From Planctomycetota bacterium (GTDB lineage: Bacteria; Planctomycetota; MHYJ01; WSZJ01): a stretch of DNA of 64,000 bases. Made by a program: the position numbers and the translations under genes. Of this stretch, positions 5,817 to 44,484 are shown piece by piece (position 1 is the first letter of the stretch; every line of letters starts with the position of its first letter). The notes beneath the pieces were generated by a model. That model ran no database searches, was not told the origin of the DNA, and worked only from the letters and a program-made list of their open reading frames with translations. The stretch spans positions 229,301 through 293,300 of the forward strand of contig JBBTCT010000022.1 in NCBI GenBank assembly GCA_038060895.1, written 5' to 3'.

Positions 5817-6965
5817 ATGGATCATAATGACATGAAACGATATGAGACGGACTTCGACGCCGCCCTGGCGTTCCTCCAGGTCAGCCGCTCCACCCTGAAC
5901 CGCTGGGTCCACGACGGCAAACTCCCCGCCCGAAAGGTCGGCGGCCAGTGGCGCTTCTCCGAAGAAGACCTCACCAGACTCCGCGACGGATCCGGGGAGC
6001 CCGCCCCGCTCGTCCGCGCTCGAGAAGAGCTGAAGACTTTCCTCGAATCCTCACGGGCCAACCGAAAGGGACCGAAAAACATGAACGCCATCGACACGAA
6101 ATCGCAGCCGCTCGCCGAAGCCCTGGTCTGGGAAGCGCACGACCGCAAGGCCTCCGAGCTGCACCTCCAGCCGAGGAAGGACGGCGTCCACATCTCCGTG
6201 GGCAAAGAAGCGCGGCTCGAGACGATCCGCGTCATTCCGGCGGACCTCGCGCGCGAACTCGAGCAGGCATGGGAAGAAATCGGGCTGCCGTTCGGCGACT
6301 CGGGCATCCGCCGGATCTTCCTCAGTCGCGCCGGGGACCAGGCCGTGAACGAAGTCTCCGTGCTACTCCAGGCCATCGACACCCTCCAGGGGCGCCGCGT
6401 CACGCTACGCTTCATGGGCGGCGGCCGCATCGCCGACCTCGATACCGTCGCGCCGAAAGCCGACGACCGCGCCGTCTTCGAGCGCTGGCTCAAGCGCCCC
6501 AACGGGATCATTCTCTTCTCGGGCCCGACCGGCTCCGGCAAGACGACGACGCTCCTCTCCTGCCTTCAGCATCTCGCGAAGGACGCCGGGCTGGCCGTCT
6601 TCAGCCTCGAGTACCCCGCTTATGTCCGCGTCGATGGCGTCGACCAGGTTGAGGTTCCGAGCGAAGACGGCCCGGTCGTCAAGGCCGCGCTCGAGCGCAT
6701 CATGAGGATGTATCCCAACGCGATCGGAATCTGCGTCGAGACCGAAGAAGCCGCCGCGGCCGCGCTGAACATGGCGATCACGGGGCATCTCGTGCTGATG
6801 CAGGTGCATGCAGAAGAGCACGAGGCGGCGGTGAAGCGCCTCGAGCAGCTCGCAGGCAGGCCGGTCGCGCCGTCCGTGATCGGGGTGATCTCGCAGCGGC
6901 TCAAGCGCGGCGACGCGGGCGGGAAGGTGGCTGAGTACCGCTTCTGGGAGCCTGGCGGGAGATAG
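5817..6965 (+). CDS. excisionase/MerR-type HTH fused to a GspE/PilB-like secretion ATPase core
   Basis: HTH is 'FLQVSRSTLNRWVHDGKLPARKVGGQWRFSEEDL'. Walker A is 'GPTGSGKTTT'. His-box-like motif is 'ITGHLVLMQVHA'. An alternative start is ATG 5832. Confidence 0.85.
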   Translation: MDHNDMKRYETDFDAALAFLQVSRSTLNRWVHDGKLPARKVGGQWRFSEEDLTRLRDGSGEPAPLVRAREELKTFLESSRANRKGPKNMNAIDTKSQPLAEALVWEAHDRKASELHLQPRKDGVHISVGKEARLETIRVIPADLARELEQAWEEIGLPFGDSGIRRIFLSRAGDQAVNEVSVLLQAIDTLQGRRVTLRFMGGGRIADLDTVAPKADDRAVFERWLKRPNGIILFSGPTGSGKTTTLLSCLQHLAKDAGLAVFSLEYPAYVRVDGVDQVEVPSEDGPVVKAALERIMRMYPNAIGICVETEEAAAAALNMAITGHLVLMQVHAEEHEAAVKRLEQLAGRPVAPSVIGVISQRLKRGDAGGKVAEYRFWEPGGR

Positions 6966-19273: not shown

Positions 19274-21091
19274 TTACTTCGCTCCCAACGTCCTCGCCCG
19301 AACAAGGTAAACCCAGACCTCCCGCCCCTTCGCCCCGTTCCTTGTGACCGCCGAGGCCACGAACGCTCTCCCGTCCTGCAGATGCGCGTCGCATCCCAGC
19401 GACACGACCTCGCAGGTCGGCGTCTGCACGGCGCCCCCTGTCTCGGACTCGGTCTCCAGTGCCTCCGCCATCGAGGCTTCGGCCAGACCCGACTGAAGCT
19501 TCACCTGCAGCCGTCCCTCGGTGGCCTGGAGGACGCCGGCGTGGAGAAGGAAGCCGTCGTTCAGCGAATCGATGACGGGATCCCAGGCCTTGGCGCCCCA
19601 GGCGATTTCCACGTCGTGCTCCGCGACGAAATCGGCGTGGCGGCCGCGAAGCGAATGGAAAGGACTCCCGGTGCGGCCGAGCGCGGACGACTGGGCGACG
19701 AGGCGCGCGGTCCCTTTCTGCACGAGCCCGAGGATGTCGCCGAAAAGCGCGTCGGGGAGCCCGCCCGCCCGCTCCAGGACGTCGCGGCGGGCGAGCCACT
19801 CGGACTCGGGGAACGCGAGAAGCCACGACTCGGCCGCGAGGTTCGCGCCAAGGCGCAACTCCAGGTCGGTCAGCGTGCGCCGGATCTTGTCCTGCACTTC
19901 CGGCGGCGCGTGCACGACGAGGTCGTCGCCGATGATGGCGTAGCGGCAGCCGTCTTCGCTCCAGGTTTCTTCGCCGGTGCCGGCCTTGATCCGCTCGTCC
20001 AGTTCGTCGAGGTCCAGGCAGGTCGGATCGGGACCCGGGCCACATCGGATTCCCCCTCCGTTCTCGGGCGGATCGTTCAGCCCCAGATGGGGGGGCCTGC
20101 GATCGAACCAGGGGAGGCGCAGCAGAGCGCCGATGCTGTAGGCACGGAAGACCTCCGCGTTTCCCGCCCGCTCGGCGACGGCGTCGGAAGCGCCCTCGAC
20201 GCGTGCGCGCAGGAGGACGGCCGTGGTCCAGCCCGGAGTGAAGGGGCGGTAATCGGTCGCAGCGAGGAGGAGGGTCCGGCCCGGCTGAAGCGCGACGTAG
20301 GTGCGGATTTCCGTGGAATCCATGCGCGGAAGTTCGAGGCGTCCGCCGGACGCCGCCGGGAGTTTGAAATCGGCCAGCTCGGCCAGGCGCGCGGTCTGGA
20401 TCAGGAGCTCGAGGTGCAACAGGTCCTCGCCCGCCGAAAAATGCGGCCGCATCTCCAGGACCGCACCTTCCTGAAGTTCGTCCATGATCGGGTCGGCGAT
20501 CGCAGACTGCTGCGCAATCTCGATGTCGAAATCTCTCACATAGGTCTTCCGCCGGAGCGACGACGCAACCGCGTAGCGCCCCCCGCCCCCGCGGGCGACC
20601 AGCCGGTGCGCCACCCGGCCGCGCGCCTTGTCAGCCGCCGCGGCCCGAAGCCCCGCCGCCGCCGCTTCGTCCAGCAATCCCGGCGCAAGCCCGTCCGCAA
20701 CCCCGGGCGCCAATTCCACCATCTCCATCTCCACCACGATCGTCCGCGCCGCCCGCTTTTCGAGCAGCTCGAGCGCTGCGGCAATCGACTGAAGCACTTC
20801 CGGCCCCGCCGTCACGCGCAGCGTCCCGTTGGCGTACTCGAGCGTGTCCACGCCGCTGTCCCACGCGCCGGCATTCACGGTCTGGCCGAGGAGAAGCGCG
20901 ATGCTGTCTCCGGTGCCCTCCGTCTCGGGGGCCGCGCCCACCGGGGGCTCGTAAACGACAAAGCCGATCCGCGGCCCGCGCTTTTCGGGACGAGGGTCCG
21001 TCAGGGAGCGCAGATCCCACGTGCGGCGCTCCTGCGCGGAAGCGGCCGTTGCGAAGGCGAGGACGGCGAGGATGGCGATTGAGACCCGCAT
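19274..21091 (-). CDS. secreted protein with two secretin-like modules (paralogue 1)
   Basis: The start 'MRVSIAILAVLAFATAASA' (ATG 21091) overlaps the upstream stop as ATGA. Each module has a Secretin_N-like 'L.V.A.PEV...I...L..L' segment. That is followed by 'RDFDIEIAQQSAIADPIMDELQEGAVLEMRP' or 'EHDVEIAWGAKAWDPVIDSLNDGFLLHAGV'. Confidence 0.75.
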   Translation of the reverse strand: MRVSIAILAVLAFATAASAQERRTWDLRSLTDPRPEKRGPRIGFVVYEPPVGAAPETEGTGDSIALLLGQTVNAGAWDSGVDTLEYANGTLRVTAGPEVLQSIAAALELLEKRAARTIVVEMEMVELAPGVADGLAPGLLDEAAAAGLRAAAADKARGRVAHRLVARGGGGRYAVASSLRRKTYVRDFDIEIAQQSAIADPIMDELQEGAVLEMRPHFSAGEDLLHLELLIQTARLAELADFKLPAASGGRLELPRMDSTEIRTYVALQPGRTLLLAATDYRPFTPGWTTAVLLRARVEGASDAVAERAGNAEVFRAYSIGALLRLPWFDRRPPHLGLNDPPENGGGIRCGPGPDPTCLDLDELDERIKAGTGEETWSEDGCRYAIIGDDLVVHAPPEVQDKIRRTLTDLELRLGANLAAESWLLAFPESEWLARRDVLERAGGLPDALFGDILGLVQKGTARLVAQSSALGRTGSPFHSLRGRHADFVAEHDVEIAWGAKAWDPVIDSLNDGFLLHAGVLQATEGRLQVKLQSGLAEASMAEALETESETGGAVQTPTCEVVSLGCDAHLQDGRAFVASAVTRNGAKGREVWVYLVRARTLGAK

Positions 21092-22899
21092 CAGCGCACC
21101 TCCGGAAAGCGGACCCGGATGAGGAGAAGGAGCGTTTCGGCGGGGCCTTCGCGTCGCGCCTCCGTCACCGCCGTCCACTCGCCGGCCTTGACGGTCGAGT
21201 CCGTCCGGATTTCGAGCAGGTCGATCGTGGTCCGGTGGATGTCGCCGCCGTGCTCCGCCCCGGTTCCAAATGCTGCGATTTCCGAACGCCACCCGAACTG
21301 GCCCTGGAGTTCCACCCGCGCGCGCCCGCCAGCGTCGGCCGCAAAGGGCCTCACGTCAAGCAGGAGCCCTTCGCGCAGGACGTCGTTGACCGGGTCCGTC
21401 GCCGCCGCTTCCTGCGCAATCTCGACGTCGCGGTCGCGCACGAAGAGCGACTCGGCGCCCGCGAACGCGTGGACGCGCTGGCCGGTGAGCCCGAGAGCCG
21501 TCGCGCCTGCGACCACGCGCGCACGGTCGCCCTTGCGCGCCGCCGCGAGAACGTCCGCCGCCGGGAGGTCGCCGCGCTCCCTGCCCTCGAGGGCCACCAC
21601 GACCGCGTCCACCGCGACCCGCTTCAGCCGGAGTTCGGCCATTCCCTTGAGCGCCGCTTCCGTCGCTTCCAGGATCCCCTGCGGTGCGACGGCCATGATG
21701 CGGTCGTGCCTGAAGCGCAGTTCGCGGCCTTCCACCGACCAGGCGTCCTCCCCGCCGGCCGACTGGCGGAGCAGCGCCCCGAGAGTGTCGTCGTCGAGCC
21801 CGGGATTGCGCGGGTCTTCGATGAAGATGACGCCGCCCTGCTGTTCGTCCCAGTCCGAGAGGTCCAGCCGCTGCCCGGGGAAATCCGTCACGTTCCATTG
21901 GAGGGTGCCGGCCTCGAGGAAGCGCATCTTGAGATCGTCGAGGCCCGCCGCGAGATCGCCGAGGGGCTCTTCGACGCGCTTGGCGCGGACCAGCGCCACG
22001 AGCGTCCAGCCGTTCTCGATGCCTTCGACGCCGCCGGGGACGAGCAGGACGGTGCGCCCCGAAGGGCACGGCCACGTCCCGGCCGCGAACCAGGCCGCGC
22101 GCGAGGGGAGCTGGATCTTTCCCTCGGGTTTCGCCTTCGCGTCGAATTCGAGCACCGTGCCCGGGCGGGCGCACTGGAAGCGGTACTCCAGGAGGACCGT
22201 CGCGCCGTCGGGGGCGAGCACCGGCCGCACGTCGAGCACGGTCCCATCCAGCACTTTCTGCACGAACGGGTCGGCGACCGTGGCCGCCTGCGCAATTTCG
22301 ATGTCGTAGTCCACCACCAGTTGCCGCTCGCGCACGTCGGCCGCGTGAAACCGAAGCCCCGGCGCGCCGCCCGATCGCAGCACCGCCACTGTCCGCCCGC
22401 GCGTCCCGCCCGCCGCCGCTTCCCGCAACGACTGCTCCTGCGCATCCGTCACGACGCCCGCTTCGAGCCCGGCCGTTTCAAGCACCCCCGGCGCCAGCAG
22501 CATGACCTCCGCATCCACCACCACCCGGCGCGCGCCGATCCGCGCGAGCACGTTCAGGGCCGCGACGATCTTCTCCTGGGCCTGCTTCGTCTGCTTGACC
22601 GTCATCCACCCGTCGCCGGCGATGTCGAGCGACGCGTCCCCCGCTTCCCACGACTCCGGCTCGACCATCCGCTGGATCGCCCAGGTCAGCGTCTCGGCGT
22701 CGAAGGCGGCCACTTCCTCGTACTCCTCGCCGTTCTCAACGGCCGAAGTATCCGGAATGGTTTTCAGGCTCAGCCTCGGTCCCGGCTTCGAACTGCCCGT
22801 AGCCCGGAGCGCGCGGACGTCGTGCGTGCGCGTCACAAAGCCAGAGTCCTCGGCCCAGGCAAGTCCCGCGGCGAGGAAGAGGACGGCGATCGGTCGCAT
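21091..22899 (-). CDS. secreted protein with two secretin-like modules (paralogue 2)
   Basis: Start 'MRPIAVLFLAAGLAWA' (ATG 22899). Motifs are 'VDYDIEIAQAATVADPFVQKVLDGTVLDVRP' and 'RDRDVEIAQEAAATDPVNDVLREGLLLDVRP'. Colinear with paralogue 1. Confidence 0.75.
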   Translation of the reverse strand: MRPIAVLFLAAGLAWAEDSGFVTRTHDVRALRATGSSKPGPRLSLKTIPDTSAVENGEEYEEVAAFDAETLTWAIQRMVEPESWEAGDASLDIAGDGWMTVKQTKQAQEKIVAALNVLARIGARRVVVDAEVMLLAPGVLETAGLEAGVVTDAQEQSLREAAAGGTRGRTVAVLRSGGAPGLRFHAADVRERQLVVDYDIEIAQAATVADPFVQKVLDGTVLDVRPVLAPDGATVLLEYRFQCARPGTVLEFDAKAKPEGKIQLPSRAAWFAAGTWPCPSGRTVLLVPGGVEGIENGWTLVALVRAKRVEEPLGDLAAGLDDLKMRFLEAGTLQWNVTDFPGQRLDLSDWDEQQGGVIFIEDPRNPGLDDDTLGALLRQSAGGEDAWSVEGRELRFRHDRIMAVAPQGILEATEAALKGMAELRLKRVAVDAVVVALEGRERGDLPAADVLAAARKGDRARVVAGATALGLTGQRVHAFAGAESLFVRDRDVEIAQEAAATDPVNDVLREGLLLDVRPFAADAGGRARVELQGQFGWRSEIAAFGTGAEHGGDIHRTTIDLLEIRTDSTVKAGEWTAVTEARREGPAETLLLLIRVRFPEVR

Positions 22900-22990
22900 G
22901 AAGCGGTCTCCCGGGTGAATTGGCAGGGCGTCCCCCGGTGCATGAGACGGCCCGACGGGGGTGCGGGTCAAGCGCATTTCTGAAGTTCTG

Positions 22991-23364: not shown

Positions 23365-24924
23365 TTGCCTGGTGCCTACGAGAGGAAATCGCCCATGGAA
23401 CGATTTGAGGCCGCACGTCGCGCACGCGCAGTTCTGCAAAATCTGGTCATCGCGGCGGCTCCGGCTGGTCAAATCCTGAATGCCACGCTTCGCGAGTGCC
23501 TCCTCCTGACTGGGGCGCGAACCGCGCTCTTCATTGGCGCCGCCGAGGTCCCAGAGCACCTTCGAAGCGTTCCCATGACCTTCGATGGACCGGGAAAGTG
23601 GCCGCCGCTTTCACCGAAACTGCTCGAAACGGTCATGCGTACGGCGAAGCCCTGGGTTCCCGTGGCAACGCCCGCGGATGGAAATGGCACTCCACCCCAC
23701 GTCTCCGAAGTGCTGTGCCTGGGCGATCGTTTCATGGGGGTCGCAGGGTTCATGCCCTGCTCGTTGGAAACTCTCGGTGAAGCGGGGCGTGAACTGCTCA
23801 CAGAGCTCCTACAGTCCATCGCCGAAGCTCTCTCCGCGGCCGTGTACCAGACGGCAATCGCCCGATTGGAGTCGGACCTGCGGCTTGCGAGAGTTGGCAA
23901 TGCCCTCACGCCGCTACCTCTCGTCGGCGGACCGACGAAGCTGCAGTCAAAGCGGCTGGTCGGCAATTCATCCCAGATGCGCGATTTGGACGGACGGATC
24001 GATCGTGCAGCCGCCACCGATGCAACGGTCCTGATCCAGGGGGAAACAGGAACGGGGAAGGAACTTGTCGCCCAGGAAATTCACGCCCGTTCGCCGCGGC
24101 GGCGGGGCCCGTTCGTCGATCAGCACATGGGAGCCTTGCCCGACGACCTGATCGAAGCGGTCATCATGGGGTACGTCAAGGACATCCACTCGCAAGCCCA
24201 CAAAGACAAGCCCGGCCAGTTCGAGCTAGCCGACAAGGGCACCTACTTCATGGACGAGGTCGGGCTGACCACCCTGATCGTGCAGGAGAAATTTCTGCGT
24301 GTTCTCCAGGAGCGAAAGGTCCGCCGCATCGGGTCGGAAGTGTCGTTCGATTTCGACACGCGCATCATTGCGGCGAGCAATCGCGATCTGCAGGAACTCG
24401 TCCGTGAAGGAAAAATGCGTGAGGACTTTTTCTACCGGCTCAAGGTCGTGACCATTCCCATCCCCCCGCTGCGTCACCATCTCGAGGACTTGCCGGCACT
24501 GTTCGAGTATTTCACCGAGCGCCTCGCCTGCAAGTGGAGCCTGCCCGCGCTTCGCGACCACAAATTCGATTCCGCCTGGGCCGCTCTCCTCGGGGGATGG
24601 TCGTGGCCCGGAAACGTTCGGGAACTTGAAAACACCGTTGAGGAGGTCGTAACGAATTCGGGAGGCGCGCCAAAGCTCGAGGAACTGGAAAAGATCATGG
24701 ACGCGAAGCGGAATGCGGCCGGGATCGAGGAGGCAGCGTCCGGCGAGCGGATTTCGCACGCCAAGCGGATGGAGAATGCCGAAGCGAACTTCCTGCGAAG
24801 CGACCTGCGCGAGAGCAACGGCAGCGTCCGCAAGGCGGCAGAGAAGAACGGCCTCTCGGAGCCGACCATGCGAAGGAAGGCAACCCGGTATCACCTCTCG
24901 ACTTCGTCAGGCGCTCAGAAATGA
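23365..24924 (+). CDS. sigma-54-interaction-domain (AAA+) transcriptional regulator, GAF-like N-terminus, Fis-type HTH; GAFTGA motif absent
   Basis: 'VLIQGETGTGKELVAQEIH', 'GTYFMDEVG', 'RIIAASNRDLQELVREGKMREDFFYRLKVVTIPIPPLR', 'WPGNVRELEN' and the HTH 'SVRKAAEKNGLSEPTMRRKATRY'. An alternative start is ATG 23395. Confidence 0.85.
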   Translation: MPGAYERKSPMERFEAARRARAVLQNLVIAAAPAGQILNATLRECLLLTGARTALFIGAAEVPEHLRSVPMTFDGPGKWPPLSPKLLETVMRTAKPWVPVATPADGNGTPPHVSEVLCLGDRFMGVAGFMPCSLETLGEAGRELLTELLQSIAEALSAAVYQTAIARLESDLRLARVGNALTPLPLVGGPTKLQSKRLVGNSSQMRDLDGRIDRAAATDATVLIQGETGTGKELVAQEIHARSPRRRGPFVDQHMGALPDDLIEAVIMGYVKDIHSQAHKDKPGQFELADKGTYFMDEVGLTTLIVQEKFLRVLQERKVRRIGSEVSFDFDTRIIAASNRDLQELVREGKMREDFFYRLKVVTIPIPPLRHHLEDLPALFEYFTERLACKWSLPALRDHKFDSAWAALLGGWSWPGNVRELENTVEEVVTNSGGAPKLEELEKIMDAKRNAAGIEEAASGERISHAKRMENAEANFLRSDLRESNGSVRKAAEKNGLSEPTMRRKATRYHLSTSSGAQK

Positions 24925-25081
24925 CGAAGCGCCGCTCATCTTTGACGAAACGCACTTCGTAAGTCGAAGCCCTGTGGTGCGCGAAACTTGTGTCGCGTGC
25001 CGCACCGGCCGGTTCCGTTGAATTCGTCAAGAGTGAGCGAGTGCCGGATCCTTTTCCGGATCCCGCCCCGGGGAATGTGAG

Positions 25082-25096
25082 TGGCCCGCGGCTTGC
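25082..25096 (+). promoter_or_regulatory. sigma-54-type -24/-12 promoter candidate TGGCCCG-N4-TTGC
   Basis: TGGCCCGCGGCTTGCG matches the consensus TGGCACG-N4-TTGCW, with GG and GC at the canonical spacing. It ends 13 nt before ATG 25110. Confidence 0.5.
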
Positions 25097-25109
25097 GATA
25101 AAGATTCGC

Positions 25110-25637
25110 ATGGGAGCCTGCTGCGGCGGATGCGATGAGGGCGCGAGTTGCGCTGGCAAACAGCCTGCGGCGGTTTTGCTGCCTCCGGACCTGATCATCC
25201 CGGGACCCGACCCGGATCGCACGGGAGTGCTTGAGCTGGAAGAAGTTCCGGATGAGACGACGAGCGATGAATCGGTCCCGCTGATCACGAAGTCGCTCGG
25301 CCCCACCCGGCCAGTCGCACTTAACACCCGTCTCGTCCTCACGGACGGCGGAACGACTGTCAGCGAAGCGCTGCACGTCCGGGGTTGCAACTCGGGTAGC
25401 GTCGACCTTGTCGTCTTCCTTCTGAATTCGATCTCGACCATAGACGCGGTCCTGGAGGGCGGAATCGACGGAGAAAACTACCGCCGGATTTCCTCGACGC
25501 GATTCAGCGCAGCCGGGTTTGCGAGGTTCCGATTTCGCCGGGTGGGTTACCGCTTTCTCCGAGTGTATTACAGCGCTTCCGGCTCGGCCGGTGGCGTCGC
25601 TGTCCTGACCACAACGATCAACGGTTCATCCAACTGA
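25110..25637 (+). CDS. cassette protein A: Cys-rich N-terminus, Pro/acidic linker, beta-rich C-domain
   Basis: 'MGACCGGCDEGASCAGKQ...'. The C-domain 'AVLEGGIDGENYRRI...YRFLRVYY' is paralogous to protein B. The track ORF extends to GTG 24990; the start chosen here follows the promoter candidate. Confidence 0.6.
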   Translation: MGACCGGCDEGASCAGKQPAAVLLPPDLIIPGPDPDRTGVLELEEVPDETTSDESVPLITKSLGPTRPVALNTRLVLTDGGTTVSEALHVRGCNSGSVDLVVFLLNSISTIDAVLEGGIDGENYRRISSTRFSAAGFARFRFRRVGYRFLRVYYSASGSAGGVAVLTTTINGSSN

Positions 25638-25656
25638 CCCCCAAAGGAGGACGTTC

Positions 25657-25980
25657 ATGGCCTATGCCAAGCTCTTTACAAACTTGTCCGTCGTCAACGG
25701 AGTTTCGCAGTACTCGCAACCGTTCAGTATGGCGGGGAACAACGCGTTCCGGTTCGGAGTGACGGTCTTCAGCAACTCCGCGACGAGTCTGACCTGTACG
25801 CCCCAAGGTTCCATCGACGGACAAAACTGGCGGGACCTCACCGCCGCAACCGGGCTCGTCGTCGGGTGGGCCTCGTTCACGCAAGGGAGCATCACCGACC
25901 TGATGGTGAGACTCGTCTGCACGGTCGTAGGAACCGGGACGATCGTCCTGGCCGCTGATGTGTACACGAGCCAGCAGTAG
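25657..25980 (+). CDS. cassette protein B: 107-aa beta-rich protein (possible major subunit)
   Basis: Strong SD (AAAGGAGG, 6 nt before the ATG). 'TPQGSIDGQNWRDLTAA...LMVRLVC' parallels protein A. A stable hairpin follows the gene. Confidence 0.7.
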   Translation: MAYAKLFTNLSVVNGVSQYSQPFSMAGNNAFRFGVTVFSNSATSLTCTPQGSIDGQNWRDLTAATGLVVGWASFTQGSITDLMVRLVCTVVGTGTIVLAADVYTSQQ

Positions 25981-26026
25981 GAACACGAAGAGTCGGAGCA
26001 GTCGCAACCCTCGGACCAGTCGGGGC

Positions 26027-26055
26027 GGAGGAGAGCCGTCGTCCGGCTCTCTTCC
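26027..26055 (+). other. intercistronic GC-rich hairpin (12-bp stem, 5-nt loop, no U-tract)
   Basis: GGAGGAGAGCCG tcgtc CGGCTCTCTTCC, read directly. It lies between cassette genes B and C. Confidence 0.6.
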
Positions 26056-26100
26056 GTCCGGCTTCCGAAATAAAAACATCGTCGTTACAAAGAGGTCGAA

Positions 26101-26667
26101 ATGCCCGAACTTCCGCTGACCTACGTCTACGAGCCGCCGAACTGGCTTGCGCGCGCGAACGCCTACGGCTCCTGCGTCGGCGGCCGGAGATTCTCCGTCG
26201 CGCATCAGACACCCGGGACGACCGTGACGGGGCAGACCTCCTTCGTGGCCACGACTCCCACGTTCCTGATCAACCAGGCGAGCGCCGCGCACCGCGTCGT
26301 GCTCTCGAACTTCGCGCTCTGCCAGATCGGGACGCCCGCGGGAGGGACGATCCACGTGGCGCTGGCGATCGACTCGTCGGATCGATACTCCTCAGGAGGG
26401 ACGTCGATCACCCCGCAGGCGACCGCGATGCCCAGTGCGCTCACCGCGGGCTTCAGTTTCCGGTTCAACCCGACCGCCGCCGCCGCCAGCGCCGTCCGGA
26501 TCCTGAACGAGTGGACCCAGCCCGCGTGGGCCGGTTCGATTTTCAATCCCGACCTGCATGACGGCGTCCTGATCGGATACACGGGTTCGATTCTGATCTA
26601 TACGTGGGCGGCCACGACGGCGCCGACGTGGATCATCGGCGGCTTCGACGTCCTGGAGGACGAGTAG
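26101..26667 (+). CDS. cassette protein C: 188-aa beta-rich protein
   Basis: SD 'AAGAGG' precedes the start. Ser/Thr/Ala/Gly-rich with alternating hydrophobic pattern ('VVLSNFALCQIG', 'ILIYTWAATTAPTWIIGGFDV'). The stop lies 1 nt before the gene D start. Confidence 0.7.
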   Translation: MPELPLTYVYEPPNWLARANAYGSCVGGRRFSVAHQTPGTTVTGQTSFVATTPTFLINQASAAHRVVLSNFALCQIGTPAGGTIHVALAIDSSDRYSSGGTSITPQATAMPSALTAGFSFRFNPTAAAASAVRILNEWTQPAWAGSIFNPDLHDGVLIGYTGSILIYTWAATTAPTWIIGGFDVLEDE

Positions 26668-26668
26668 G

Positions 26669-27553
26669 ATGCCGACGATCCGAGACCTGAGCCAGGGCGG
26701 CGTCCAGCCTCACGCCTCGACGCACATGTCGGGAGGTTCCGACGCGATCAAGCTCGACGAGCTCGCCGCGCCTACGGACGTCACGACGCTGAATGTCTCC
26801 ACTTCGGCTCACGGGCTGACGCCGAAGCTCCCGAACGATGCGACCAAATACCTCGACGGGACTGGCGCGTTCAGCGTCCCTGCGGGAAGCGGCGGCTCCG
26901 GCTCGTACCTCGGGACCACCGTGAAGACTTCCGGCACGACGTTCACGACCGGAGCCTCCACCAACACGATCCGTGTACGCCTTCAGGCCGGCGGCGGTGG
27001 AGGCGGCGGCGCTGCGTCGAATCTATTCAGCCCCGCCGGCGGCGGTGGCGCGGGCGGATACGCGGAAAAGACATTCGCCGTGAGCCCCTCGACCGCCTAC
27101 ACCTGCGCGATCGGCGCCGCAGGAGCCGGGGGCTCGGCAGGAAACAACAACGGCTCGGCCGGAGGGAACTCCACTTTCGCAGTCGGCGGAACGACCGTCA
27201 CAGCTTTCGGCGGCAATGGCGGAATCGGAACTGCCGGCGGAAGCGGCTCATCCGCGATCTTCGTTCTGGGGGGCGCTGCCGCATCCGTCTCCACGAGCGC
27301 CGACCTGAACGCAAGCGGCTCGCCGGGAGGGTTCGGGACAGGAAGTGGCGGCATTGGTGGTAGCGGCGCCTCGGGAGCCGGAGGTTCGTGCCTCTTCGGC
27401 GCCGGCGGAAACAGCCTCAATACCCAGAGCGGCGGCGCCGCGGGCGTCGGTTACGGCGCGGGCGGAAGCGGCGGCTGTTCGCTTTCCAGCGGCGGAAACG
27501 TTGCCGGCGGCGCAGGACTCGCCGGGGTGATCGTCGTCGAGGAGTTCTCGTAG
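26669..27553 (+). CDS. cassette protein D: phage-tail-fibre-like N-terminus + glycine-rich domain
   Basis: 'HASTHMSGGSDAIKLDELA...STSAHGLTPKLPNDATKYLDGTGAFS' is followed by a 'GGGGGGGAAS...GGGGAGGYAEK...GGNGGIG' glycine-rich domain. Confidence 0.8.
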   Translation: MPTIRDLSQGGVQPHASTHMSGGSDAIKLDELAAPTDVTTLNVSTSAHGLTPKLPNDATKYLDGTGAFSVPAGSGGSGSYLGTTVKTSGTTFTTGASTNTIRVRLQAGGGGGGGAASNLFSPAGGGGAGGYAEKTFAVSPSTAYTCAIGAAGAGGSAGNNNGSAGGNSTFAVGGTTVTAFGGNGGIGTAGGSGSSAIFVLGGAAASVSTSADLNASGSPGGFGTGSGGIGGSGASGAGGSCLFGAGGNSLNTQSGGAAGVGYGAGGSGGCSLSSGGNVAGGAGLAGVIVVEEFS

Positions 27554-27574
27554 CAAGATCGAGGAGATGAAGTC

Positions 27575-28015
27575 GTGAGCGGAAACGGCTGTTCCTTCTG
27601 GGCCCAGAACGTCTCCCCGGAGACGAGCTGGCCGATTTCCTCCGAAGCGCCGGCGGGGATGGACGGAATGTCCTGGTCGAGCGAGTGCGTCTGGGACGCG
27701 ATGTCCTTCCCGCAGGGAGTCCTGCAGGTCTCCGCGCCCGTCGAGATCCGGAACCCAAACAACACCGTGATCTTCTCCATCGTGATCATCGGCCAGAGCA
27801 GCGGGTCTCCTCAGCTCGCCATCGTATTCTCCGGCGCCAATTGTCCGGAGGGTCCCTACACCACGCTGAGCGGGCCGACCAACATCACGACCTTGGGCCT
27901 GCAGTTCCTAGGCGCCGTGACCGGAATCAGGTTCCCCTACGTCCGGGCAGAAGTCATGTCGTCGAACGGGAGTGCGGTGGCGGGGAGCGGGTGCTTTTGT
28001 GTCTCGGAAGCCTAA
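27575..28015 (+). CDS. cassette protein E: 146-aa beta-rich, Cys-containing protein
   Basis: GTG start with SD 'GAGGAG' 9 nt upstream. 'VIFSIVIIGQSSGSPQLAIVFSG...IRFPYVRAEV' is the same style as A and B. Confidence 0.65.
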   Translation: MSGNGCSFWAQNVSPETSWPISSEAPAGMDGMSWSSECVWDAMSFPQGVLQVSAPVEIRNPNNTVIFSIVIIGQSSGSPQLAIVFSGANCPEGPYTTLSGPTNITTLGLQFLGAVTGIRFPYVRAEVMSSNGSAVAGSGCFCVSEA

Positions 28016-28173: not shown

Positions 28174-28656
28174 ATGCCAGATCCAGAGATTGTGTCAATT
28201 GACGAAATCTTGCGTGCTAATGAGCTAAGGGATCCGCTGACCGGGGTCAGAACCGGCGGCACCGTGCTACACCCTGGCACTGGCGTGAAACTTCGGAAAG
28301 ATCGGCCTTCAGGATCCATTGGAATCAACTTGGACACAGGTCAATTGGAGATGCATGACTGGGGGCCGACCGTTGCTGGGCCCAGTACTGATTTCTCAAA
28401 GTTACCTGAACGAATCCGACTCTTTGGGGGAGAAACTGGCGACGGGCCCAGGGTGGGTCGTGACCCAAAGGAGTCTGAGGACCGTGGCGTGGAGATGCTG
28501 CTTCCGGAAGGCGTGAGAAAATTCGTCGCAGGAGATGCGCTGAAGGCAGGTATTGTCTCCATTTCCTTCGAGTTCGGAGGACCTTGGGGCCTTACCGTCA
28601 CGTTTGGAAGGCCGCCTGAGCCGGCTGGGGTCAGACGGAAGGACCTGGAGAAGTGA
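28174..28656 (+). CDS. hypothetical protein (low-GC island)
   Basis: Strong SD (GAAGGAGG, 5 nt before the ATG). 160 aa. No motif recognised. Confidence 0.6.
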   Translation: MPDPEIVSIDEILRANELRDPLTGVRTGGTVLHPGTGVKLRKDRPSGSIGINLDTGQLEMHDWGPTVAGPSTDFSKLPERIRLFGGETGDGPRVGRDPKESEDRGVEMLLPEGVRKFVAGDALKAGIVSISFEFGGPWGLTVTFGRPPEPAGVRRKDLEK

Positions 28657-28760: not shown

Positions 28761-29909
28761 ATGCGAACAGAAGCTTCTAGCGAACTGACTCATTCGTCAA
28801 GGTGGTGTCATCCAGTTACATTTGCACTTGCCTTGTTTCTTGGATGCGCCGCGGGTCAGGGCACCAACGAATCGAAGCCAGAAGAACCCAGGATTCACAA
28901 TTCGGTGGAATTGAGGGACTCGCAAGGGAGGATCCGGCTCTCGATCTGTCTGGATCAAGATGAGTGTCCTCAAATCATGCTATTTGATCCCGCCGGACAC
29001 CCTCGCTCGCGAATTGGACTAAGTTCGGAATTCGAACCCGTAATTCGTATGACGGGTTCGAACGGCGAGGATGCGGTTTCGCTTGGTTTGCGCGAGGATT
29101 CCCCCCAACTCCGGCTGGAGTGTGGCGAGGGACGAAGTGGTATTCGGATCCAGGCTGAAGCAACGCGAGGACCGGAGTTGACGTTGTCGGATGGCGATGG
29201 TTTGGAGCGCGCCCGACTGGCAATTGATCGTGGCGCCCCACAACTTTCGATGTTGGACCCTGGACTCAAGCCTCGCCTGTACCTTGGAACCGAGGTCTCG
29301 ACACCGGATAATTACGGACTCCGCGTCACCTCAGACGACGGCCTTTCCCGCGCGGAGGTTGGCACGACAAAAAACTCGCCGGCGTTCATCCTCGTTTCTG
29401 GAGGCGCTGGCGAATGGTCAGCGCTTGCAATGAGCCGTGGCGGGCACCCGCTGCTAAGCTTTGTCGATTCGACCGACATCGAACGAATTCGAGTCAGCTT
29501 GACGCCTCAACAGGAGTCCGAAGTAGCGCTTTGTAGCGCCGAAGGTCAGATTTCCGTTCTGGCAAGATGTCCGAAGTCGGGTTTCGGGTTGGTCAACTTG
29601 TCCGATGGCGATTCACCGACAGCCGTGTTTCTGGGGAAAGGTTCGTCCGGTGATGTCTTGGCCGGGATCGTTGATGCGGCGGGGTGTAGACGAGCGAGCT
29701 TGTCGCTAACCCCGGAGGACCGAGCTTACGCCTCCGTACAGGATTCGACCGCCTCCTCAGCCTTTCTGACGAACGATGGCAAAGGACTTTGCAAACTCGA
29801 GCTGAATCGAAAGGGAAAGACCAGACTGCTCGCGGGTTTTGACAAGACTGATACAGCATCCTTCATGTCGCTTGATTCGGAGGAAATCGAAACTTGGCGA
29901 TCAAAGTAG
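28761..29909 (+). CDS. lipoprotein built from ~20-aa 'L.L.D..G..R..L' type repeats (low-GC island)
   Basis: Lipobox 'LALFLGCAAG'. Recurring units include 'VELRDSQGRIRLSI', 'IMLFDPAGHPRSRIGL', 'LTLSDGDGLERARLAI' and 'LRVTSDDGLSRAEVG'. Confidence 0.7.
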   Translation: MRTEASSELTHSSRWCHPVTFALALFLGCAAGQGTNESKPEEPRIHNSVELRDSQGRIRLSICLDQDECPQIMLFDPAGHPRSRIGLSSEFEPVIRMTGSNGEDAVSLGLREDSPQLRLECGEGRSGIRIQAEATRGPELTLSDGDGLERARLAIDRGAPQLSMLDPGLKPRLYLGTEVSTPDNYGLRVTSDDGLSRAEVGTTKNSPAFILVSGGAGEWSALAMSRGGHPLLSFVDSTDIERIRVSLTPQQESEVALCSAEGQISVLARCPKSGFGLVNLSDGDSPTAVFLGKGSSGDVLAGIVDAAGCRRASLSLTPEDRAYASVQDSTASSAFLTNDGKGLCKLELNRKGKTRLLAGFDKTDTASFMSLDSEEIETWRSK

Positions 29910-40827: not shown

Positions 40828-41241
40828 GTGAGCACGAAGCCACAATTTCCATGTCCGTGTTGTGGATACGTCGTGTTTTTCGAGCGTCCGGGTAACTACG
40901 AAATTTGCCCGATCTGTTTCTGGGAAGACGACCTCGTTCAACTTCGTGACCCGCGGTTTCCAGGGGGCGCCAACAAATCCAGCCTGGTGGATGCGCAGCA
41001 GAACTGCATTTTGGAAGGTGCCATGGAATCCCGATTCAAGGGGAATGTCCGCAAGCCGCGACCTACCGACGAACAGGATCCGCATTGGCGGCCGGTCAAC
41101 CTCGAGAAGGACAACCTGGAGCAGTGCCTGCCTGAAGGGGTCTTCCCTGCCCGAGCTTCCGATTCGCCGGCGCGAGATTTCAGGTGTTCGACTGCCCCCG
41201 CCGCGGCATCATGCCTGCAACCTCTCAGCCGGAGAATTGCC
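40828..41241 (+). CDS. CPCC-family cysteine-rich protein; no in-frame stop before the next gene
   Basis: 'FPCPCCGYVVFFERPGNYEICPICFWEDD'. The ORF reads straight on into the signal peptide of the next gene (the track shows one 377-aa ORF). Confidence 0.5.
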
Positions 41242-41961
41242 ATGCGCGTTTGCCTCGTTCTCGCCTTCGTCGGCATCGCCGCTTCCCTCGCTGCCGCCCA
41301 GGACTCGAAGCCCGACGTCTCCGAAAACGCCTGGCTCGACTACGACGTCGCTTCGCTCAAGAACGGCGAGTGGGTGAAACTGAAACTCGACCGCGACGGG
41401 GAGAAGCCTCTGGAGTACCGGCTGTCGTGCGTGGGGCTGGAAGCGGAGGTGGTCTGGATCGAGGAGGACCGGACGACGGTGGAGTCGTTCCCGGGGACGG
41501 TGATCCTGTGCTCGGTGGGGTTGAAGGACCGGAAGGTGAAGCGCGCGTTCTGGGGGAAGCCGGGTGAGAAGGGCCGGGAGCTGAACCTGACGCGGCGGAT
41601 TTTGCCGGATCCGGGCAACGACGCGGCGAAGGGGACTGCGGAAGTGACCGCGGGCAAGGTGACGATCAAGGGAAAGGAGCACGTCACCGAGAAAATCGAA
41701 ATCAAGGTGGAGATCGAGGGGTTCGGCGCGCCGATCAAGACGAAGCAGGTGATCGTCCTTGCAGCCGAGATCCCATTCCCGCTGGCGATGGACGAGAAGG
41801 GCAACTGCCGCGCGAGCATTTCGGAGGGGAAGATCGAATGGAAGGGGAAGCCGACGTGGAAGGGCGGGGTGGTGACGCTTCAATTTGAGGGCGGAACGAA
41901 GTCGACGCTGTCGCTTGTGGACTGGGGGGCGGACGCGAAGGCGACGTTGTTCAAGCCCTAG
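41242..41961 (+). CDS. secreted hypothetical protein
   Basis: Internal start 'MRVCLVLAFVGIAASLAAAQ' is a signal peptide. The body is Lys/Glu/Val-rich and beta-type. Confidence 0.6.
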   Translation: MRVCLVLAFVGIAASLAAAQDSKPDVSENAWLDYDVASLKNGEWVKLKLDRDGEKPLEYRLSCVGLEAEVVWIEEDRTTVESFPGTVILCSVGLKDRKVKRAFWGKPGEKGRELNLTRRILPDPGNDAAKGTAEVTAGKVTIKGKEHVTEKIEIKVEIEGFGAPIKTKQVIVLAAEIPFPLAMDEKGNCRASISEGKIEWKGKPTWKGGVVTLQFEGGTKSTLSLVDWGADAKATLFKP

Positions 41962-44203: not shown

Positions 44204-44215
44204 TGTACGTCGGTT

Positions 44216-44307
44216 GGAGAGGTGTCCGAGTGGCTTATGGTGCTGGTTTCCAAAACCAGTGAACGGTGGTGACACACCGTCCGAGGGTTCGACTCCCTCC
44301 CTCTCCG
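44216..44307 (+). tRNA. type II tRNA, Ser-like body (G73, long variable arm), anticodon CCA
   Basis: Manual cloverleaf. Acceptor GGAGAGG/CCTCTCC. D-arm TCC-GAGTGGCTTAT-GGT. Anticodon stem CTGGT/ACCAG with loop TTCCAAA. 23-nt variable arm (ACGGTG-GTGACA-CACCGT). T-arm GAGGG-TTCGACT-CCCTC. Discriminator G. No encoded CCA end. Confidence 0.8.
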
Positions 44308-44325
44308 TTTTGCTGTTCTGAGGCT

Positions 44326-44420
44326 GGCCGGGTGGCGGAACTGGTTTACGCGCCCGACTTGGAATCGGGTGGTTGTCTCTTGACGGGGGCACCATGCGGG
44401 TTCGAATCCCGTCCCGGTCA
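44326..44420 (+). tRNA. type II tRNA, Leu-like body (A73, GGCGGAAYTGGT D-arm), anticodon UGG
   Basis: Manual cloverleaf. Acceptor GGCCGGG/CCCGGTC (one G.U pair). D-arm GCG-GAACTGGTTTA-CGC. Anticodon stem CCCGA/TCGGG with loop CTTGGAA. ~26-nt variable arm. T-arm GCGGG-TTCGAAT-CCCGT. Discriminator A. Confidence 0.75.
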
Positions 44421-44484
44421 GTCTCATTTTTGAAAGATCGAAGCGCCTTTGCGAAGTGCTTGAGGCTGGCGCGTGTCAAAAGAA

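Follow-up and report, generated by a model that had tools for sequence, protein, structure and literature searches.

Five tightly packed genes, designated A to E, in a 64-kb stretch of a Planctomycetota bacterium genome (contig JBBTCT010000022.1, positions 229,301 to 293,300 of the forward strand; hereafter, the window) may encode a domesticated, phage-derived and self-assembling receptor-binding complex, composed of a hub (C), a fibre (D) and lectin-like subunits (A, B and E), a reading that we favour tentatively, with confidence short of even. With the same reserve, we regard the cassette as a member of an operon family that is multi-copy and specific to one lineage, an uncultured clade of Planctomycetota, and in which phage virion accessory genes would have become fixed in the chromosome under a dedicated sigma-54 activator. 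A, B and C, together with the N-terminal 27 residues of the protein encoded after C, form an invariant core, and the phage-type receptor-binding part that continues from it is exchangeable. Throughout, coordinates of open reading frames (ORFs) are positions in the window, and loci in other DNA are labelled L002 to L044.

The five genes lie co-directionally on the + strand and are separated by gaps of exactly 19, 120, 1 and 21 nt (Table 1). The public contig, on which genes were called independently, has the same five products, in agreement with the sizes and spacings given in a preliminary description of this DNA, which was made from the sequence alone. The strong Shine-Dalgarno sequences that it placed before B (AAAGGAGGA), C (AAAGAGG) and E (GAGGAG) were all found, and D has one as well (GGAGGA, within the 3' end of C); none was seen when the sequence upstream of A was read. 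Since D starts 1 nt past the stop codon of C, translational coupling between these two genes is suggested. A, B, C and E had no match above threshold in Pfam, NCBIfam or PADLOC, and in PHROGs only B had a match, a marginal one to 'major tail protein' (E 0.003), which we do not trust. The system had been called uncharacterised, and this still applies: no curated family accommodates these four proteins, and no described system corresponds to the complete module.

We examined the distribution of the cassette by a scan of one genome per species and the gene order by searching every ORF of over 30 loci with family hidden Markov models (HMMs). The scan found 25 loci with C, in only six species of Planctomycetota or Brocadiia metagenome-assembled genomes, with nine loci in one genome and at least five in another. 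The order of a sigma-54 enhancer-binding protein (EBP) gene, an A-like gene, B, C and a gene beginning MPT[IL]R is kept in at least nine distinct loci, several more being cut by contig ends, and an EBP gene lies upstream of C in 14 loci. In L008, L028 and L036 the arrangement is different: C comes first, and a cluster of four or five B-family genes lies a few kb further downstream. The gene after C starts 0-5 nt from the C stop codon and begins MP[TI][ILV]R in about 22 loci, and its remainder belongs to at least five unrelated types across the loci: glycine-rich proteins of 294-425 aa, proteins of 226-230 aa, stubs of 88-90 aa, proteins of 158-164 aa and a type of 80 aa. The stubs precede separate fibre parts, among which one in L012 gave a weak, sub-threshold match to a 'Collar' domain (E 0.0013). 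D of the window shares only its first ~27 aa with the other loci, at 85-92% identity. The ratios of nonsynonymous to synonymous substitution rates (dN/dS) of A-E against orthologous loci were 0.13-0.36 (0.21-0.29 for A and 0.24-0.36 for E) at near-saturated dS, indicating purifying selection. Together with the conserved order, these ratios argue that the cassette is not a chance juxtaposition, the outcome that the preliminary description had tied to an absence of synteny.

C is the most conserved component and, by dN/dS, the most constrained of A-E; 134 homologues were found, many at 70-88% identity, and B has few close relatives. The predicted structure of C (predicted local distance difference test, pLDDT, 90) is an all-beta jelly-roll. 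It had been introduced as another Ser/Thr/Gly-rich all-beta protein, which is right about the fold but understates what is the most conserved and pivotal component. A relationship of C to B was considered and rejected (hhalign probability 0.5%). The best matches of C among solved structures are the single-jelly-roll capsid proteins of nano-, gemini- and microviruses, and it has better matches still among predicted structures, to uncharacterised Caudovirales proteins of similar size (E down to 1e-9). One of these fold matches is in Pantoea phage LIMEzero and is most likely ORF57 (assigned by length only), the last gene of that genome, annotated only as conserved hypothetical. The search of PDB sequences with the C profile returned only noise, mostly antibody light chains. 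Two IMG/VR contigs (L013 and L014) carry C homologues at ~50% identity. There, the major head protein gene (phrog_371) is followed, further on, by the C homologue, a 150-aa gene and Neck1/tail completion (phrog_26). Decoration and head-completion genes of tailed phages usually stand in this head-neck morphogenesis module. We propose that C acts as a hub or adaptor for the fibre.

A further C homologue, with a 90-aa N-terminal extension, was observed on a phage-like 60-kb contig (L015; JGI 3300031949, 1-20819), where it is followed by three paralogous 260-aa genes; a 1048-aa virion-type protein and paralogous 299-/365-aa genes are also encoded. This contig is almost blank in PHROGs and offers no functional lead, and it may belong to a new lineage of viruses whose only component in common with the planctomycete cassettes is the C domain. 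Apart from the C homologues, no gene on the L013, L014 and L015 contigs recurs in the chromosomal loci.

D is, on sequence grounds, a phage-type receptor-binding fibre and a new member of a known fibre family. It matches PF21722 (Gly_rich_2; E 1.4e-6, 28.9 bits against a cut-off of 24.3, residues 89-290) and the tail-fibre PHROGs phrog_863 (E 3e-29), phrog_6202 (E 2e-14) and phrog_454. The protein is laid out as a conserved anchor (residues 1-27, MPTIRDLSQGGVQPHASTHMSGGSD), fibre repeat motifs (residues 14-75) and a glycine-rich domain (residues ~89-294). The repeat region contains two short motifs that occur in about 12 copies in a 2347-aa fibre-like protein encoded on a 132-kb viral contig (L044), and the glycine-rich domain aligns to the fibre gp24 of cyanophage Pam3 (7yfw/7ypx), in which this domain is the receptor-binding tip (PMC9608196). 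The tail-fibre-like N-terminus and the glycine-rich domain initially ascribed to D were thus recovered by PF21722, phrog_863 and the L044 motifs.

B is a stand-alone, minimal jelly-roll beta-sandwich with the motif 'GS.DG.NW'. Residues 71-175 of A align to the full length of B (BLASTP, 25% identity over 100 aa; A against the B-family HMM, E 3e-14), and E is linked to the B family at the profile level only (hhalign probability 97.8%, E 9e-13), so that the alignment, BLASTP and hhalign all agree with the beta-sandwich domain, ~100 residues long, first noticed as common to A, B and E. A consists of an N-terminal four-cysteine motif (MGACCGGCDEGASC, CC-x2-C-x5-C), a Pro-rich linker and the B-family jelly-roll. 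A-type members in general begin with M-x-C-C-x2-C-x5-C and continue with a Pro-rich linker, and the orthologues in L007, L010, L012, L017 and L022 open with MGCC, MAGCC or MSCC; the cysteine cluster pointed out at the start of A therefore recurs across orthologues. E is a divergent member of the B family whose jelly-roll has conserved cysteines towards each terminus (GC.C at the N-terminus, C38, and GCFC at the C-terminus). Seven homologues of E were found. An E gene comes after the glycine-rich fibre gene in L017 and L020 and stands ~1.5 kb downstream of C in L035.

The B-family profile retrieved 462 cluster representatives among 1.84 billion proteins, all of them unnamed metagenomic proteins and most of them stand-alone at 105-115 aa. 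Their cores have no conserved cysteine (mean of 0.66 Cys in 127 short members), and C47 and C88 of the window copy are not conserved. Against PDB sequences, the best match of the profile was YeCBM32 (E 0.0019), the others lying at E 0.006-1; about a dozen further CBM32-type modules were among the 19 matches at E up to 10, and a phage decoration protein was also weakly matched. B resembles cement/decoration proteins and CBM32 domains, and it also matches capsid proteins of microviruses, nanoviruses and satellite viruses. These comparisons point to the B family being a minimal, divergent relative of lectin-like jelly-rolls. B is probably the most highly expressed subunit of the cassette. Tandem copies of the minimal jelly-roll exist as well: 11 stretches of a very large, probably surface, protein (P0148; 4410 aa, on a 35.9-kb Logan contig) match the B-family profile.

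Several B-containing loci differ in their other genes. L002 and L006 have neither C nor a sigma-54 activator, and in both an extracytoplasmic function (ECF)-type sigma factor gene and a small putative anti-sigma gene adjoin the jelly-roll genes (L002, 13873-14675; L006, 8015-8844); in L008, a sigma-like 200-aa gene, recognised by eye only, is at the same position (6140-6742). It is thus possible that two different alternative-sigma systems control the jelly-roll family. The same three loci encode proteins of 167-423 aa with runs of consecutive cysteines (CCCCCCPCDC, CCCVCCCC, CCCCPCCCP and CGCGCGGGG; L002, 10448-12810; L006, 10432-12782; L008, 13395-15186). The 420-aa type of these poly-cysteine proteins has a GFSRGG motif, which recalls the nucleophile elbow of alpha/beta-hydrolases; a hydrolase assignment was unsupported by Pfam and by the PDB sequence search.

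The EBP gene upstream of A encodes a protein that matches Pfam Sigma54_activat (E 6.7e-54) and AAA_lid_14 and is NorR/AtoC-like in NCBIfam. Its ORF is open from a TTG at 23365, and the public gene call begins at the ATG at 23395. As the preliminary description stated, this EBP is atypical: its GAFTGA loop is degenerate and reads KDIHSQA (residues ~262-275, window 24150-24200, GYVKDIHSQAHKDK). The closest paralogue, in L033 (7570-8790), also lacks GAFTGA, with KGMHSTA in its place (GYLKGMHSTASKDK), and in most sister loci the EBP retains GAFTGA, GSFTGA or GAFSGA. The GAFTGA motif normally contacts sigma-54. In both the window and L033, the GAFTGA-less EBPs lie upstream of excellent -24/-12 elements. 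The element in the window is the sole match to YGGCMC-N5-TTGCK in the 64 kb on both strands (0.58 expected over both strands), and comparable elements are present in 11 of the 14 EBP-to-C spans (background 0.041 per kb per strand), each retaining the position downstream of the EBP gene; the sigma-54-type promoter proposed earlier is thereby upheld. Its -12 GC is 13 nt ahead of the ATG of A, so that the A mRNA would be almost leaderless. Two CCGGATCC copies lie ~20-40 nt 5' of the -24 element, unusually near the promoter for an activator site, and this pair is a speculative candidate for the activator binding site. The hairpin noted after B was also recovered: the 126-nt B-C spacer (25978-26103) folds at -48.5 kcal/mol (z -3.1; 0 of 200 shuffles were as stable). 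Structured B-C spacers, not conserved in sequence, were found in four of the five other loci tested (L010, L012, L033 and L023; not L007). The hairpin had no Rfam match and is a candidate intra-operon attenuator or mRNA stabiliser.

Table 1 Features of the cassette and its surroundings, in window coordinates.
Feature	Position	Strand	Description
EBP gene	23395-24924	+	sigma-54 enhancer-binding protein; AAA+ domain, helix-turn-helix (HTH), N-terminal sensor region of no assigned type
Direct repeat pair	25044-25063	+	two CCGGATCC copies, 12 nt apart (one helical turn)
Sigma-54-type -24/-12 promoter	25082-25097	+	TGGCCCGCGGCTTGCG, GG-N10-GC, between EBP and A
Gene A	25110-25637	+	175 aa
Gene B	25657-25980	+	107 aa
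RNA hairpin	26011-26068	+	in the 120-nt B-C spacer, no U-tract
Gene C	26101-26667	+	188 aa
Gene D	26669-27553	+	294 aa
Gene E	27575-28015	+	146 aa, GTG start
ORF F	28174-28656	+	160 aa, strong Shine-Dalgarno GAAGGAGG; status as gene and module membership uncertain
Predicted lipoprotein gene	28761-29909	+	382 aa, lipobox LFLGC, internal repeats; module membership uncertain

The surroundings of the cassette are chromosomal. A Pfam search of 20 flanking ORFs identified GrpE, Hsp70 and DnaJ-like proteins downstream and a sulfatase, kinases, helicases and a T2SS-E (type II secretion) ATPase elsewhere. The same search, together with Pfam and PHROG searches of A-E, detected no phage structural, integration, sheath, tube or baseplate genes (this is not an exhaustive annotation), and tail genes were found neither in the window nor in the chromosomal sister loci. 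Scans of 22-31 kb for flanking repeats, Rfam elements and terminators gave nothing relevant, the nearest tRNAs are 16 kb away, and the GC content is a few points lower over 23-30 kb. The Pfam, tRNA, repeat and Rfam scans thus agree with the preliminary view that this is neither an ordinary prophage nor a contractile-injection locus, and no prophage was found around the cassette, which answers the concern that one might lie just outside. In setting the cassette apart from phage loci, that description was right about the lack of a prophage but not about the parts, which are clearly phage-related: D is a phage-type fibre, and C and B both have phage likenesses.

Downstream of E, in a stretch of lower GC (0.56), lies the gene for a predicted 382-aa lipoprotein, which is weakly similar to a lipoprotein at the 3' end of L010 (E 0.008) and has a weak match in L024. 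ORF F, between E and this gene, is absent from the gene call of the public contig, and HMM mapping found no homologue of it in the related loci. Either of them is a possible accessory of the cassette, the lipoprotein possibly as an anchor. Immediately upstream of the EBP gene, on the - strand (19274-22977), two adjacent paralogous genes encode proteins of 628 and 672 aa with signal-peptide-like N-termini; they belong to no Pfam family and are not conserved beside the cassette in other loci. Elsewhere in the window, ARAGORN predicted a tRNA-Trp (44215-44308, 94 nt) and a tRNA-Pro (44325-44421, 97 nt), 16 nt apart, which are unusually long for bacteria and may therefore carry insertions or be miscalls. 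Three further proteins of note are encoded at 546-2369, 5817-6965 and 40828-41961: one is a Schlafen-group-3-type helicase with an HSDR_N-like N-terminus, another is a T2SS-E/type IV pilus-type ATPase fused to an HTH_17 domain, and the third is a 377-aa protein with a Cys_rich_CPCC domain.

Taken together, we propose that the products of the cassette would assemble as follows. The N-terminal domain of the EBP would sense a signal, and the EBP would open the -24/-12 promoter before A. B would be produced in excess, with the hairpin after it damping or stabilising the transcript, and C and D would be made in fixed proportion through translational coupling. The invariant jelly-roll C would form an oligomeric hub, on which the first ~27 residues of D (MPTIR…HxSTHxSGGSD) would dock, and the glycine-rich tip of D would bind a target surface. 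The lectin-like A, B and E would supply the body or an accessory layer, and the cysteine motifs of A and E would cross-link or metal-bridge the assembly. The several loci of one genome would keep A-B-C and swap the fibre, each under its own regulator, thereby providing a repertoire of binding specificities. We infer a surface or particle system, and with it the assembly, stoichiometry, C-D contact, cysteine role, location and biological target outlined here.

Several observations weigh against this proposal. Neither B nor C had a tblastn match in 50,697 deposited phage genomes, and the back-translated QGSNDLQNW motif of the B family was not found in IMG/VR; D and its N-terminus also had no tblastn match in the deposited phages, where the low-complexity filter probably hides D. 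A-E have no signal peptide recognisable by eye, genes for secretion, lysis or assembly are not conserved in the loci, and no exit route from the cell is accounted for in the proposed complex. The sigma-54 dependence of the window copy is uncertain because its EBP lacks GAFTGA. Finally, some related loci combine ECF sigma/anti-sigma genes and poly-cysteine proteins with no fibre, and the family may thus do something other than binding.

A bolder form of the receptor-binding reading, which we consider doubtful, is that these loci define a new class of bacterial nanostructure: a self-assembling fibre or particle made of three kinds of jelly-roll from phage head accessories, with interchangeable phage-type fibres and N-terminal cysteine staples and with no dedicated export machinery. 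One Planctomycetota lineage would deploy it as a repertoire, with six to nine loci per genome, each under its own sigma-54 regulation. If true, it would be a functional analogue of multiple fimbrial operons or of tailocins, with an entirely different parts list.

Other explanations account for part of these data. The architecture of A, in which CC-x2-C-x5-C, a Pro-rich linker and a jelly-roll follow one another, and the conserved terminal cysteines of E recall the Ena fibres of Bacillus, in which three clustered genes encode jelly-roll subunits of 117-160 aa with ~100 core residues and a flexible N-terminal Cys-Cys connector, which self-assemble in the E. coli cytoplasm (10.1101/2020.08.21.260141). 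Some ENA classes are reported to bear collagen-like tip fibrillae. On this model, B would stack as the major subunit of a disulfide-linked fibre or pilus with no signal peptide, the cysteine connectors of A and E would staple it and D would be the tip fibril. We judge it unlikely: A-E had no Pfam DUF3992 match at E<=1, the B core has no conserved acceptor cysteine, the fold matches to Ena were not the best ones and the jelly-roll is a generic fold, and the model leaves no role for C, the most conserved protein. It is similarly improbable, in our estimate, that the genes encode a capsid-less virus-derived or bacteriocin-like particle, with a jelly-roll shell or scaffold, a targeting fibre and cysteine-tagged cargo or toxins. 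The capsid-protein matches of C (nano-, gemini- and microviruses) and of B (microviruses, nanoviruses and satellite viruses) fit such a particle, as do the sister-locus proteins of 358-423 aa with CCCCCC and CCCVCCCC runs, one of them with GFSRGG, and the swapped receptor-binding fibres, which are typical of tailocins. However, no packaging, lysis or release gene was found, the hydrolase reading of the poly-cysteine protein was unsupported, and the window copy has no candidate cargo.

An anti-phage or interference module, in which an activator that senses infection would switch on host copies of phage head-accessory and fibre proteins, and these would poison the assembly of incoming phage or block receptors, strikes us as very unlikely. 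C homologues do stand within the head-neck module of phage contigs, B does resemble cement/decoration proteins, and multi-copy, variable islands of lowered GC are typical of defence loci, but the conservation of C among paralogues and the orderly swapping of fibres look more like a structural repertoire, and the window encodes no effector enzyme. The AAA+/HTH part of the EBP resembles RtcR/PspF-type regulators in PADLOC (E 8.5e-84), although this match excludes the CARF sensor domain, and A-E themselves had no PADLOC match apart from an insignificant one of C (E 0.023). To a decaying prophage remnant with no present function we give hardly any credence. The phage-related components and a GC content below that of the surroundings would be expected of one, whereas all five ORFs are intact with dN/dS of 0.13-0.36 at near-saturated dS, and the order, regulator and promoter are kept in many loci and species; selection and synteny thus contradict a dead remnant, and the searches around the cassette turned up neither further prophage genes nor att repeats, a tRNA or an integrase.

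Known cases of phage-gene domestication involve whole tails (tailocins and injection systems) or whole heads (gene transfer agents and encapsulins). If the cassette is a receptor-binding complex as proposed, it would represent a new route of domestication, in which head-accessory jelly-rolls are combined with receptor-binding fibres. It also brings to light four protein families with no curated match (A, B, C and E), two of them with confident fold models, and offers a handle on the cell biology of Planctomycetota, a phylum whose surface biology is poorly understood. The constant hub (C with the 27-residue anchor) and its swapped binding domains could serve for display, and the textbook -24/-12 promoter beside a GAFTGA-less EBP bears on how activators contact sigma-54.

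Among known systems, phage receptor-binding fibres (Pam3 gp24, the phage S16 gp38 type and PF21722 proteins) share with D the classic design of a conserved anchor and a swapped distal part. Pam3 gp24 (280 aa) and D are alike in size, in the short N-terminal docking part, in the C-terminal glycine-rich domain and in the GGGGxGG runs, and both end in a hydrophobic strand (…GVIVVEEFS in D and …GIIIVQYFS in gp24). Unlike phage fibre genes, the cassette has no baseplate, tube, sheath or other tail genes and is under a sigma-54 promoter in a bacterial chromosome; the anchor of D is made of 27 residues common to the cassette family only, rather than being an alpha-helical domain for baseplate docking, and E, downstream of D, encodes a jelly-roll instead of a Tfa-type chaperone with its helical trimerisation domain. 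Cement/decoration proteins (the Bordetella phage BPP-1 cementing protein, the Carin1 decoration protein and KHP40 gp16) share the jelly-roll fold, and the C homologues of L013 and L014, between major head and neck genes, are at the usual site of decoration genes. Their sequence relationship to the cassette is not significant, however, and neither the window nor any of the chromosomal loci contains a capsid gene; the chromosomal loci have several paralogues and a fibre.

The likeness to Bacillus Ena1A/B/C (DUF3992) lies in the cluster of small jelly-rolls, the N-terminal Cys-Cys connector, the flexible linker and the lack of signal peptides and of assembly machinery, and in the tip fibrils of some Ena classes. 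The cassette differs in having neither DUF3992 nor acceptor cysteines in the B core, in occurring in another phylum with no sporulation, and in adding the conserved hub protein C and a phage-type fibre. With CBM32/F5/8 type C (discoidin) domains, the B family has the 'S.DG..W' region and the jelly-roll in common, but B is a stand-alone protein of 107 residues, whereas CBM32 domains comprise 130-150 aa and are usually attached to enzymes, and A-E had no Pfam F5_F8_type_C match at E<=1. Tailocins, extracellular contractile injection systems (eCIS, including the Photorhabdus virulence cassettes, PVC) and gene transfer agents resemble the cassette in that phage structural genes have settled in a host chromosome, are regulated by the host and come with exchangeable fibres. 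In place of their sheath, tube, baseplate, capsid, portal and terminase, none of which the cassette has, its core is made of three kinds of jelly-roll.

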